From Pseudovirgaria hyperparasitica (lineage: Eukaryota), in NCBI GenBank assembly GCA_010093815.1, contig ML996580.1: a stretch of 64,000 nucleotides of DNA; one strand, given 5' to 3'. Both the position numbers and the translations under genes were made by a program. Positions 33,936 through 39,410 of this stretch are shown here, piece after piece. The notes beneath the pieces were generated by a model. That model worked only from the letters and a program-made list of their open reading frames with translations. It searched no databases and was not told the DNA's origin. Numbering within the stretch: position 1 is the first letter of the stretch; every line of letters begins with the position of its first letter.

Positions 33936-34407
33936 TGAGTTGTTTGGCTGCGATATAGAGGCTGTGGCCTTGCGTTGTGCTATTGAGGCGATAGGAGATT
34001 TAAAGAGATCGCGTCTTGATTGGAAGCTTCGCTGTGCGACCAAGCCGCTTACCCGTGCATGAAGCTCTATATGTCGAGTATGCCACGGTATTCAAGACTA
34101 CCAGCAAGTCGATACGGAGACTGGTATTGCAGGAAGGGTGGCGCACGTCGCAATGTTTTGGCGAGCATGCTCAAGAGCAAGACGACGAACGCAGAGGTTA
34201 GGCATGTGGTCAGAGAGGCTATCCCTGAGATGCAGTCGTCTTGGAGAAATACGCAGCAAGGTTGCAGAGCCTACCAAAACGCAGCATCTAGACTCACGCA
34301 CCTCATGTGCATCAAAACTGCTGAGCAAAGCGCACATCACGGTTCATATAGAAACATGAACGTTCATCGCTCACTCGCACAGAAGATTCTCTCACTATCT
34401 CCCGAAA

Positions 34408-35594
34408 CTACATAAAATCATCCTCCCAGTTCGGATCCCGATCCTGGTTACTCTGCGCCGCTAGTGCATCCTCACTAAACATATCATCGTACGCATGCTC
34501 CTTCTCCCACTTCTTCTCCTTCCGCTCCTTTGCAATGCGTGCCTCTTCCTTGGCTCGCGCCTGCTGATTGACTCGGTCCCGCTGCCGCAGCTCCTTGAGA
34601 CGATCTTCCTTTTCCTGCAGCAGGTTGGGATAGGATTCGGTGCGGGTTTTGTTAAGGCGATTTACGATTGGGTTCTCGCGCGCAGCGACATGGATCTTCT
34701 TAACCTGTCGGGGGAATTGAGCTGTGTGTCCTTTGCCCTGACCACTCGATCATATCACATGATATATAGGGGACCGCTGGTGTTGGGAGCGGAGAGAGAA
34801 GATGAAAAAGCATAATTACCTTCTTCTGGTCCTTAAACCCGACCTGCCCAACGGCCATACTTCCATCCTTCTTCAAGTTCGACCACGGCGTGTATATCAC
34901 CGTGATGTTATCCTTCTTATTGCCTGTTCATCAAGGGGTTTTATACCTCAGCCTCGTGAACCCCCTTTCTTAAGCCAAGCGTACACGGAAAGAAGAAAGA
35001 ATTAAAAAAACACGCGAAGCGAAGAATTGAGCATACCTTCAATCGAATTCGCCTTTGTCAGCTGTGCGCAATCAACCAACAAGTCCTTCTCAATCGCATC
35101 CCAGGTCTCGCCGTCGCGCAGACGCACGTAGACATGCGCCGAGGACAGATTGTCAACGTGAAACTATCCGGCCATTGCGCCCATCAGCCTTCCTGACCGC
35201 CCCTCAAACGACGAAAAGAACCATGCATAATTACCCTGAGAGTAGCACAATATTAGTATCGATTTCTCACCCCGCGAGTTCCCCCCACCCCAATTTTCTG
35301 TGTTTGTTTATGGATGCAGGGGGAACGGTAAGGGGAGAAAAAGAAAAGGGGGAATTTATTTACCAGACATCTTCGTCCCAGCCGTACTTTATCAAATCTT
35401 CGTCTAACACGCGCTCAGTCGATTCAGTCCATATGTGCCTTTTTTTACAAAGGGCTGTCCGGGTAGCTGACTGGCTGGCTGGAGCTAGTCTGCGCGCCCG
35501 AGGGAAAAAAAGCCTACGTACTTTCGACTTTGTCCTTGCCCATGTAGATGTATGCCGAGGGCTTGACGACGTTGCTTGTAAAGTAGTACACCAT
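34408..35594 (-). CDS. JLP2: CCDC25/Jlp2 (NFACT-R, DUF814) protein; model includes a 1-nt exon at 35235
   Basis: [97 protein letters not shown]. Confidence 0.95.
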
Positions 35595-36078
35595 ATCTGC
35601 CCCTTTTGCTGATAATAACTCAAGGATCCGTTGCGGGGTGAGCGTCTTGAAAGAAGAAGGCTCAGAAACGAGCTGATGGTTGTTAGTCATATTCGCATTG
35701 GAAGGCGAAGCTTCCACCACGTCTTGGCGGGATGGATCTACTTATTTCGAACACGTGACGGCAAAAAGTGGTCAGGTGCTTTTTGTAACTATTTTTTGCA
35801 TTTCTATTCCATGGAGCTATCAATCTATTTAACAGTAATCTATTTCTCATATTGGAGAGAGAGAGAGAAGAAAAGAATCAATGCCCGCGCCGAAATGATC
35901 TGTTACCTTCCTAATCCTCTGCCTCCCTCCGCCTCCTATATACCTCTTAATCAGTAAACTAAACCTACAAAGGGAAAAAAAATATCTATAATCATCCCTG
36001 CACAAGACGAAGAAGGGATTGTATATACCCCTCAGTCGATATCAAAACGAAAGAAAAAAAACAAGAATGCACATCCCG

Positions 36079-38121
36079 TCAAGCAACAAACCACAGTCCC
36101 GCCACAAGAGCAACAGCAACAGCCATCACAGCCCCACTCGCACCCTCCATCCTCACTGCTCCAGACCCAAGCACAGGCGTCTCCGTAGACTGCGAAAACC
36201 CGCTCGTCTTCGCACTCGTACTATTCTTCGTCGTTTTGCTTGGCGTAGGTAGCGCAGATGACCTTGTCGAGGAGGTGGTGCAAGGCGAGGACGAGGACAA
36301 GGGCGGTGGTAGCGCAGTCGTAGGGGGAGAAGGAACGGCGGATGATGGGGCGGGAGGGCTGGACTCGTGCGTTGCCACGGGCACTGTGGAGATCAGTGTC
36401 ACGCCGGTGGTGAGGGTGATGACGGTGGTGACGTCGGCGCATTTGGGGCAGGGCTTTGTGATGATTGTGGTGCAGGGTTGCGTGACGACTGCAGGTGGAG
36501 GAGGGCTTCTGCTGGGTGGTGGTGGCTGCGGGATGATGCCTTCTGGACTGTGCGGTTTGGGGTGGTCGGATGTGGGTGCTGGGGTGCTGTGTGTGGAGGG
36601 TGATGGTGTGATGAGGGTGGACAGCGTGCTGGAGGGACACGGTGTGCTGGATGGGGGCGGAGTGTGGATGGTGGTGCTGGATGGTGATGGTGCGATGAAG
36701 CCTCTGGACGCTGTGCTCGACGGAGTCGTGCTCGTGGAGCATGGGGTGGAAGAGGGAGTTGGAGTTGTCGTGCATGGGGTCGACGATGACGGTGACGGCG
36801 ATGGAGTGTCTCTGGTCACTTTCGGGGTCGTCGTGCATGGGGTCGATGACGATGGTGACGGCGTTGGTGACGGAGTGCCTCTGGTCAGTGTCGGAGTTAC
36901 GATGGCCTCCATGGTAGTTGTGCTCACTAATTTACTCGTGGAGCACGGAGTCGAGGATGGAGTTGGAGTAGTCGTGCATGGAGTCGACGACGAAGGCGAC
37001 GGCGATGGAGTGCCTCTGGTCAATTTCGGAGTTACGATAGCCTCCAAGGTAGTTGTACTTATTGGCGTGCTTGTAGTGCATGGTGTTGATATATGTGATG
37101 GTGCTCGTTCGCCACCGTGCAGTTGTCTCTTACCGCCATCGTATGGTGCCGGAGCTGGAGGGGCTGACTCTTCGTTCTCGATGTTCTCGTCTTCTTCTGT
37201 CGGGGACGACGGCGAAGAGGTGGGTGTCGCGTAGGTATTTGGCGGAGGTGCGTACGAAGGGATGCCAGGTTCCTCGTCGTTTTCATCTTGATCCTCATCG
37301 TTGTTATTGTCGTCGTCGTCATTGGTGTTCTCATCGTTGTTGTCCTCGTTCTCATTATCGTTATCTTCATCCTCTTGAATATCAGGTACCGTGGTAGGCG
37401 TTGGCTCTTCCAGATCGACAGGACCTCCAAGCGTAAACTGCACAGCCGTGACCGTCGGTGCCGACAACGGAAACAACGGCGTCCAAACCGGATTGTCATC
37501 AAGCGGAGGTGGCAAGACCTGCAACACAGCCCGCGTAGTTGTGACCGGCACCACAGGTTTCTGGGTGACGCTCGCTGACTGAGAGACTACTTGGGGCACT
37601 CCTGGTTTAGGGGGAGATTGATTGATGGGTGGTGCAAAGGGTTGGACAACGTGAGGTCCCTGTGGAGTCCATGGGCTCACAGGTTTGGGCGTTGCCCCGG
37701 GAGGAGCATACTCGTCAAAAGGCTGACCTGGGAACAGGACTGGCCTGGTGACATAGACGGTAGTTGGCTCAGGGGCATCGGATTCGTCGAAAGGCTGCCC
37801 CGGGAACAAGACTGGTCTGGTGACATAGACAGTGGTTGGTTCGGGGGCAGTGAGTTCGTCAAAAGGTTGGCCTGGGAACAGAACTGGTCTAGTAACAAGC
37901 ACCCAGACGACCTCGTTAGTAGAACCTTGGGCAGTACTGGTAGAAGTTGTGCATGGCGTCGATGAAGTACCGTGGCCCCTTCTGGCTACATCGGGAGGAC
38001 CTGCAATAGTCAGTATGGCGACGACTGTATAAGAGAACATATAAGACGTACTTCCAGGAGCCGCCGAAACTGACGACAGTAGTAAGACTAGCGTCAGGGA
38101 TATGGCTTTCATTGAGGCCAT
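36079..38121 (-). CDS. Secreted, probably GPI-anchored Ser/Thr/Pro-rich cell-surface protein with internal repeats
   Basis: Signal peptide MKAISLTLVLLLSSVSA-AP, three VTRPVLFPGQPFDE repeats, an acidic D/N/E tract, STPCTT/STPCST repeats and a hydrophobic tail SGAVRMEGASGAVMAVAVALVAGLWFVA. Probable in-frame intron 38001-38051. Confidence 0.85.
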   Translation of the reverse strand: MASMKAISLTLVLLLSSVSAAPGSTSYMFSYTVVAILTIAGPPDVARRGHGTSSTPCTTSTSTAQGSTNEVVWVLVTRPVLFPGQPFDELTAPEPTTVYVTRPVLFPGQPFDESDAPEPTTVYVTRPVLFPGQPFDEYAPPGATPKPVSPWTPQGPHVVQPFAPPINQSPPKPGVPQVVSQSASVTQKPVVPVTTTRAVLQVLPPPLDDNPVWTPLFPLSAPTVTAVQFTLGGPVDLEEPTPTTVPDIQEDEDNDNENEDNNDENTNDDDDNNNDEDQDENDEEPGIPSYAPPPNTYATPTSSPSSPTEEDENIENEESAPPAPAPYDGGKRQLHGGERAPSHISTPCTTSTPISTTTLEAIVTPKLTRGTPSPSPSSSTPCTTTPTPSSTPCSTSKLVSTTTMEAIVTPTLTRGTPSPTPSPSSSTPCTTTPKVTRDTPSPSPSSSTPCTTTPTPSSTPCSTSTTPSSTASRGFIAPSPSSTTIHTPPPSSTPCPSSTLSTLITPSPSTHSTPAPTSDHPKPHSPEGIIPQPPPPSRSPPPPAVVTQPCTTIITKPCPKCADVTTVITLTTGVTLISTVPVATHESSPPAPSSAVPSPPTTALPPPLSSSSPCTTSSTRSSALPTPSKTTKNSTSAKTSGFSQSTETPVLGSGAVRMEGASGAVMAVAVALVAGLWFVA
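37711..37896 (-). repeat. Coding 72-bp tandem repeat (24 aa unit, about 2.6 copies)
   Basis: VTRPVLFPGQPFDE(LT/SD)APEPTTVY repeated with synonymous differences between copies. Confidence 0.92.
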
Positions 38122-39410
38122 CTGAGTCGTGCGAGACGATTGATGCTGTCCGAGATTGGAATACGTGCGACGCAAAGAAGGACTGATCTATTTCGAAACA
38201 GTGGTGCGTTCCAGGCGACTGTGTAGGAACTGAGTGAGGAAAACGAATGACCAAACAGCCATCTCAACTGCCACAGATATGCGTTCTTATATACAACCAT
38301 GATGGCAACTCGCCAGCCCACAAGAACTTCATGGCAGGGGGTGGCTGCAGCACGCCCAAATTCTCATGATGACCCTCAGGTCCCAGAGGCCAATAGCGAA
38401 GGTTGATATCTGGCTGTTTCAGCCCTGTACCGTCTAGACACGGTATTTCATTGTGTATGAGGTTGGCTTTGAGCATCTTCTTTTGGTCGTGGCGGAGAAT
38501 AGGGCTGGGCCGACCCTTCGTACCAAACTTATACGGTCCGTAGGAACTGTGGTTCGGAGACCCACTATCCTCAAAAACGAAACAAGACGACGGAAGCGCC
38601 GGAAAACAGCGCACTTATGACGTTCCCAGCTACAATTACTCCAGCAACATGGCTTGCTAGTCCCACAGCTAGCAAGCTTCAGGACTTCGAGCCATCCCCT
38701 AGCAACGACGCTCTCCTATCACCAACCAGCCCCTTGGCAGGGCTAGTTTGCTGCATAGCCAAAGAAGGGTCAGCACCCAACCACAAAGGAAATGGCAGAC
38801 GTGACATCACCAATCAGATTTTCCAAATAATAGTCCATCTCTCGTTCGGCTGGACCAGCCACTGGTGACCGCGAAGGACCCTAGGTTTTGATCTTCTGGC
38901 AAAAGAGTGGTGAGTAAAGGGAGATGGATGTTTCGCTGTGATGTACGTGACTACCAGCCAGTCTCTTGGTCATCTCGTCAAGAGGGTGGTGAGTGGCGCA
39001 GAGAGGCGCACCTGGGAGACGTCGGATCTTCGCGGAACAGCAACCGGCCAAGTCAGAGACAAGACATACTTCCAGGAACATTGACAATGAGGATAACGCG
39101 CTGCCAAGTTGTGGTGAGAGTCTGTGTGGTGATCAGCAATCCTAAACGCCCTGGCTATGATATATACCGTTCGTTGCATCGTGTCAATACCTGAAATTTG
39201 ACCTCCAAGTCGATCGTATACACGAGCTAAAGCAACCCATAATGCGGAAAGACAAATGATAGCAGCTCGGGAAAATTGATCGGTTGAATAGATAGTCTTC
39301 ATAATGTTCGTGGTGCCGAACCTGAGAAACACCAAAACACCACACACCACGCCAGCCAGGTATACCCAAGTGCAGTCCTCATGAAACATCAAGATAAAGC
39401 AGTTAAACAA

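Follow-up and report, generated by a model that had tools for sequence, protein, structure and literature searches.

Evidence for a one-nucleotide exon that completes a conserved Trp codon in the JLP2/CCDC25 gene of Pseudovirgaria hyperparasitica

Introduction

In the CYP621A P450 genes of Fusarium, an exon of one nucleotide lies within an AGGGT core and is supported by SRA reads (Nelson and Syed 2026, PMC12940212). The JLP2/CCDC25 gene described here has the same core. Both are fungal nuclear genes in which a G exon between AG and GT (AG/G/GT, slashes marking exon borders) keeps a conserved motif in frame and was missed by gene models. In CYP621A the base is the middle of a Gly codon and the exon is reported within Fusarium and Nectria only, whereas JLP2 is a housekeeping gene of ribosome quality control whose exon appears to extend over several classes of Pezizomycotina.

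In plants, the Arabidopsis APC11 gene contains a 1-nt exon supported by mutagenesis (Guo and Liu 2015, PMC4674806), and the 1-nt exons of APC11 and VPS55 occur across land plants, where all reference annotations missed them (Yu et al. 2022, PMC8831610). The authors of the APC11 study propose that the flanking introns are removed one after another (PMC4674806). Like the JLP2 exon as we read it, the plant exons are constitutive, lie between spliceosomal introns, went unannotated and are conserved over a whole major clade. By contrast, the APC11 exon is an A, and the stretch around it had been annotated earlier as a single 422-nt intron. The plant cases are proven by mutagenesis and RT-PCR, whereas the JLP2 exon is known from transcript contigs and the comparison of loci. 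CYP621A is called the second 1-nt exon reported in the 2026 paper (PMC12940212); the 2022 paper had already added VPS55 to APC11 (PMC8831610).

The stwintrons of Pezizomycotina, the fungal group considered here, are pairs of U2 introns, abutting or nested, that are removed consecutively; the papers on them also discuss intron positions one nucleotide apart (PMC5587772, PMC5639578). In a stwintron a splice signal is interrupted by the internal intron and no part of the whole is retained, whereas JLP2 keeps one coding base. In mitochondria, exons of a single base flanked by group I or II introns are reported for placozoan cox1 (PMC5436844) and Ophiostoma (PMC12308204). These share the exon length of one with JLP2; their introns are self-splicing and organellar, not spliceosomal. 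In Drosophila recursive splicing, very long introns contain AG/GT ratchet points, which are zero-length exons. The placement of a 3' site beside a 5' site and the stepwise removal are similar; unlike JLP2, ratchet points retain no nucleotide.

A literature search, supplements aside, found no report of a one-nucleotide exon in JLP2/CCDC25. Within the literature searched, JLP2 is the first fungal housekeeping gene with a 1-nt exon and the first case to span several fungal classes, and it is unusual for its breadth, its nearness to a catalytic residue and the scale of its misannotation. It also extends the list of spliceosomal 1-nt exons that are backed by RNA, here by transcript contigs of one sample.

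Gene structure and possible splice solutions

The window, a stretch of 64,000 nt from P. hyperparasitica, carries the gene on its minus strand. An earlier note on this sequence had set out a base-by-base arrangement of an exon ending in GTCTG at 35364, intron A (35363-35236), a single G at 35235, intron B (35234-35164) and an exon beginning with TTTCAC. All of these bases are present in the minus-strand sequence. The parts of the gene, with the evidence for each, are as follows.

35522..35594, minus strand: CDS exon 1, 73 nt, ATG at 35594-35592 (sequence, and contig piece from 35522 after joint 35403/35522)
35404..35521, minus strand: intron 1, 118 nt, GT..AG (contig joint 'skips 118, CT..AC', both runs)
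35364..35403, minus strand: CDS exon 2, 40 nt, last bases GAT GTC TG (sequence; contig piece 35362-35403)
35236..35363, minus strand: intron A, 128 nt, donor GTAAAT, acceptor CTCAG (sequence; zero contig depth in bins 35169-35339)
35235, minus strand: one-nucleotide exon G, very probably (enumeration, net 199-nt removal in mRNA, core kept in 18/18 loci that need it)
35164..35234, minus strand: intron B, 71 nt, donor GTAATT, acceptor GATAG (sequence; without contig depth)
35037..35163, minus strand: CDS exon 4, 127 nt, begins TTT CAC GTT GAC, F-H-V-D (sequence, contigs, enumeration)
34924..35036, minus strand: intron, 113 nt, GT..AG (contig joint 'skips 113, CT..AC (cut +1)')
34820..34923, minus strand: CDS exon 5, 104 nt (sequence, contigs, enumeration)
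34705..34819, minus strand: intron, 115 nt, GT..AG (contig joint 'skips 115, CT..AC (cut +2)')
34408..34704, minus strand: CDS exon 6, including the stop codon (ORF list and enumeration)

The terminal TG of exon 2 forms bases 1-2 of a Trp codon, and G35235 is the third base of that codon, Trp38. The G stands between an AG and a GT, and both flanking introns have a donor, a branch motif and an acceptor of their own, as had been claimed: GTAAAT..ACTAAT..CAG, then G, then GTAATT..GCTGAT..TAG. The branch motif lies at 35257-35252 in intron A and at 35188-35183 in intron B, which places the branch A 17 and 20 nt, respectively, from the 3' end of the intron. No AG intervenes between the branch motif and the acceptor in either intron. 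With G35235 included, the CDS is 642 nt long and encodes 213 aa, the usual length of orthologs, without an internal stop.

We enumerated every GT/GC..AG solution of the single- and two-intron kinds. Exactly one two-intron GT-AG solution, the 1-nt exon at 35235, restores D-V-W-F-H-V-D, and no single-intron solution does; the statement that only TG+G+TTT gives W-F-H therefore stands. Equally, removal of the 200 nt as one intron, with donor A joined to acceptor B, drops the G and shifts the frame as predicted, giving a stop after 72 codons. The further assertion that no other canonical GT-AG solution exists did not hold: we found four in-frame single introns, which share one donor (GTCTGG, 35368), remove at least V-W from the protein and are contradicted by the RNA. 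One of them, of 205 nt (35164-35368), gives exactly the deposited protein P0001 (coiled-coil domain-containing protein 25, P. hyperparasitica, 211 aa), the model of this species that the window matches. P0001 is without V-W and is otherwise the same as the 213-aa product.

Transcript evidence

Transcript contigs from two runs (X1 and X2) of one sample and one study were aligned to positions 34200-35900 of the window. The run kind is not on record for either, and the contigs were taken as RNA; because introns are absent from them, we consider them to come from spliced RNA. The contigs, of 1400 and 1320 nt, matched the window with 0 mismatches and contained three plain GT..AG joints, which skip 118, 113 and 115 nt. 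At the site of the lone G, the joint was 35162/35362, recorded as 'skips 199', with 2 ambiguous bases. The bins of zero contig depth (35169-35339) fall within the 199-nt gap, 35163-35361, between the contig pieces.

On balance, splicing thus takes out 199 of the 200 intervening nt and leaves GTCTGG-TTTCAC in the mRNA. One base of the mRNA is contiguous with neither flanking exon in the genome, which is what defines a 1-nt microexon. The junction predicted in the earlier note, GTCTGGTTTCAC, is the one present in the contigs. These contain the G-included form alone, as read from contig assembly, a procedure that drops rare isoforms and shows no intermediates. The mRNA by itself does not identify which G is kept; the comparison of loci does. 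Indeed, identical mRNA is predicted by a 1-nt exon, by one 199-nt non-canonical intron and by an assembly that lacks one G.

Comparison of orthologous loci

A profile of 20 fungal orthologs (alignment A1) retrieved 80 metagenomic loci. At the Trp/Phe junction, 57 of these had contiguous TGG-TTY, some of which may be cDNA, 1 did not reach the site and 22 had an intron ending directly before the Phe codon. The donor followed TG in 18 of the 22 intron-bearing loci, giving the arrangement TG/GT...AG/G/GT...AG/TTY (17 complete loci and L014, which is cut by its own contig end and begins ...GGCAG-G-GTATGAG). The central AG/G/GT core was present in all 18. In the other four, the donor followed TGG (TGG/GT...AG/TTC), the introns were 59-61 nt long and AGGGT occurred in none. 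It was likewise found in 0 of 18 control introns located after S-I-E-G (1171 nt in total). When the sequences were shuffled, a usable AGGGT, that is, one from which both resulting introns are at least 40 nt long, arose in 0.7-13.6% of 5000 shuffles per locus. The AG/G/GT layout exceeds chance. The check proposed earlier, a search of orthologous loci for this core, thus found it kept wherever the exon phases need it.

We tabulated 18 sequences, comprising the window and the 17 complete metagenomic loci. Intron A ranged from 53 to 128 nt and intron B from 48 to 163 nt, and the exon was always G; outside the core, intron sequence had diverged past recognition. A strict NCTRAY branch motif was found in intron A of 16/18 sequences. 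The branch motif of intron B was weak in many loci (strict NCTRAY in 5/18, a loose form in 9/18 and none in 4/18). Comparison by blastn of exon 4 from the 80 loci detected no intronless contig that was at least 92% identical to any locus with the 1-nt exon.

The four loci with the donor after TGG (L026, L027, L056 and L060) keep the downstream intron alone, and their best matches are Botryosphaeriales-like (Saccharata and Phyllosticta, 55-71% identity). Judging by its layout, this state is as would be expected after precise loss of intron A. A locus with intron A alone was not found among the 80. Loci with both introns, with intron B only or with neither make a clean case for intron loss at positions one base apart.

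Weighing of alternative explanations

The contigs and the conserved core support the earlier interpretation that a 1-nt G exon completes the Trp of D-V-W-F-H-V-D. We are confident that the spliceosome includes G35235 constitutively, as a genuine exon of one nucleotide in the JLP2/CCDC25 (NFACT-R) gene. The deposited model would be an alternative, in which a 205-nt intron starts with GTCTGG at 35368 and the protein is without V-W. This solution is canonical, in frame and equal to the public P0001. However, the contigs hold 35364-35368 as exon (piece 35362-35403), which rules out all four single-intron solutions, and each of the 19 other A1 sequences, like human CCDC25, has V-W or I-W. We regard it as exceedingly improbable that this model is right. 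It is just as hard to credit an indel in the assembly, such that the true genome has an extra G at the border of exon 2 or of exon 4 and the 200 intervening nt form an ordinary GT-AG intron; the assembled sequence at issue is GTCTGGTAAAT and GGATAGTTTCAC. The same mRNA sequence would then be expected. Yet the phase clash TG/GT ... AG/TTY recurs in 18 metagenomic loci of ~14 lineages, in independent assemblies, each with AG/G/GT, and garbled gene models occur in dozens of independently sequenced genomes. Moreover, a good branch motif lies 17 nt upstream of the internal acceptor in the window, with no AG in between.

Removal of a single non-canonical intron of 199 nt (GT..TA or TA..AG) in one step is permitted by the 2-base ambiguity of the contig joint. 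GT-TA and TA-AG are not among the known U2 or U12 splice-site pairs. If such an intron were removed, the internal AG/G/GT would be unconstrained, yet the core is found in 18/18 loci that need it, in 0/4 that do not and in 0/18 controls; we consider this explanation very unlikely. More generally, the occurrence of the core only where phases demand it, in ~14 lineages and independent assemblies, makes both an assembly error and a non-canonical intron very unlikely. Three other readings were rejected. In a stwintron, a splice signal would be interrupted; here the signals of neither intron are interrupted and one base is retained in the mRNA. A recursive splice site would be a zero-length exon, whereas the core here is AG/G/GT and the G is retained. 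Lastly, RNA editing or insertion of a G would leave the conserved AG/G/GT core unexplained.

Gene identity and position of the exon in the protein

The product belongs to the JLP2/CCDC25 family: it matched Pfam PF05670 (NFACT-R_1) at 107 bits against a cut-off of 29.8. It also fits the family in having an N-terminal NFACT-R domain with the His of W-F-H-V-D, a length of ~210 aa and a coiled-coil tail. P0007, a close ortholog, aligned with solved human CCDC25 chains at an E value of 8e-64, with W-F-H-V-D aligned and its His opposite CCDC25 H41. According to a 2026 preprint, yeast Jlp2 is a peptidyl-tRNA release factor in which His44 is essential and orthologous to CCDC25 His41. Based on this orthology and the alignment, G35235 would finish the Trp codon two residues ahead of the presumed catalytic His.

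Taxonomic breadth and origin

We placed the metagenomic loci, leaving out L012, L013 and L053, by their best protein matches. Pezizomycetes-like loci include L052 (94% identity over 127 aa to Terfezia claveryi) and L064 (95% identity over 133 aa to Wilcoxina mikolae); exon 4 is identical among L063, L064 and L066. Sordariomycetes-like loci include L046 (95% identity to Microdochium nivale), L006 and L051 (85-87% to Podospora conica) and L014 (78% to Apiospora), and Eurotiomycetes-like loci include L031 (83% to Penicillium), L047 (76% to Exophiala dermatitidis) and L028 (nearest to Chaetothyriales, 64-67%). The window itself is from a Dothideomycete. By best named match, some just 57-64% identical, the arrangement thus appears at the DNA level in Pezizomycetes-, Sordariomycetes-, Eurotiomycetes- and Dothideomycetes-like genomes. 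Its presence in these four class-like groups suggests that it arose in an early Pezizomycotina ancestor, and repeated loss of intron A alone or of both introns probably followed. Such an ancestor is hundreds of millions of years old.

Annotation of the junction in deposited proteins

We took a census of 321 proteins from three protein searches, species duplicates being left in. The motif was canonical in 150; 36 were without V-W, 47 had 1-43 extra residues exactly at the V-W site, 6 jumped from D-V-C to A-H-V-Y by a cryptic acceptor, 66 were fragments or started inside the intron and 16 were without the region. Hence 89/321 were wrong exactly at the W-F junction (V-W deleted, insertion or cryptic acceptor). 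These data agree with the earlier statement that gene predictors miss one-nucleotide exons: P0001 deletes V-W, and many orthologous models are garbled at the same spot. The 1-nt exon explains this systematic annotation error, which lies two residues from the His reported to be catalytic in Jlp2.

Affected models are named for many Penicillium species (including Penicillium rubens), Aspergillus luchuensis, A. flavus, A. fischeri, Trichophyton, Exophiala, Cladophialophora, Tuber borchii, Terfezia, Apiospora, Pestalotiopsis and Sporothrix, among others. The fragment class holds models named for A. fumigatus, Coccidioides posadasii and other Tuber species, in which the upstream exons are absent; those of A. 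fumigatus and C. posadasii begin within the intervening sequence. Two Penicillium models (P0109 and P0120) open an exon at the very G, with acceptor A used and intron B read as coding. The cryptic-acceptor models (P0134, P0147, P0156, P0158, P0192 and P0204) are from Endocarpon, Lithohypha, Trichophyton rubrum, Elasticomyces, Talaromyces proteolyticus and Exophiala mesophila. Use of this acceptor, which lies inside exon 4, costs W-F-H-V-D-N-L-S-S, including the presumed catalytic His.

Full-length ORFs on short contigs had the canonical motif and were 99-100% identical to garbled models; they are probably cDNA, and the support that they lend is indirect. One example is the canonical P0132, which closely matches two Exophiala dermatitidis models, P0129 and the V-W-deleted P0131 (99% identity to the latter). 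A canonical deposited protein does not imply that its gene is free of a 1-nt exon.

Splicing of the two introns

The arrangement suggests how the exon might be spliced. Two complete short introns of the U2 type, A (128 nt) and B (71 nt), abut the single G, and the core cAG/G/GTaatt provides both the A acceptor and the B donor. With both introns out, TG+G+TTT reads Trp-Phe. Short fungal introns are probably recognised as units, intron by intron, and a tiny exon would then be no obstacle. Because acceptor A and donor B overlap, their joint occupancy is hardly possible, and the introns probably leave in turn, in either order. Removal of A first would produce ...CTGG/GTAATT and restore a normal donor; removal of B first would produce ...CAG/GTTT and restore a normal acceptor site. 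A G suits both consensus positions, as noted for the consensus by Nelson and Syed (PMC12940212). The loci compared here form a natural series for asking how the spliceosome handles overlapping 3' and 5' splice sites.

In a G-skipped RNA, the stop codon would lie 128 nt upstream of the last exon junction and ahead of two further exon junctions. Given this position, such an RNA could be a target of NMD. A frameshift/NMD switch operated by skipping of the G, as the earlier note had suggested, is plausible, if speculative. A broader proposal is that the exon has been held since the early Pezizomycotina ancestor by a two-step-splicing gate as well as by the rarity of precise intron loss, with Jlp2 dosage coupled via NMD; we think this unlikely. 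Were it true, the dosage of Jlp2 would be tied to splicing fidelity or stress through NMD.

Neighbouring sequences

A contig of ~6.4 kb, present in both runs and aligned to window positions 35759-35900, has its start ~130 nt upstream of the point where the JLP2 contig ends. According to this contig, a transcribed neighbour gene lies close to JLP2. The ORF list also includes a 702-aa stop-to-stop frame on the minus strand at 36079-38187, in which an in-frame Met precedes a stretch that resembles a signal peptide; the long middle is repetitive and rich in Ser/Thr/Pro (...SSSTPCTTTP... units), and the C-terminus is hydrophobic. This predicted product resembles a GPI-anchored, mucin-like cell-wall protein.
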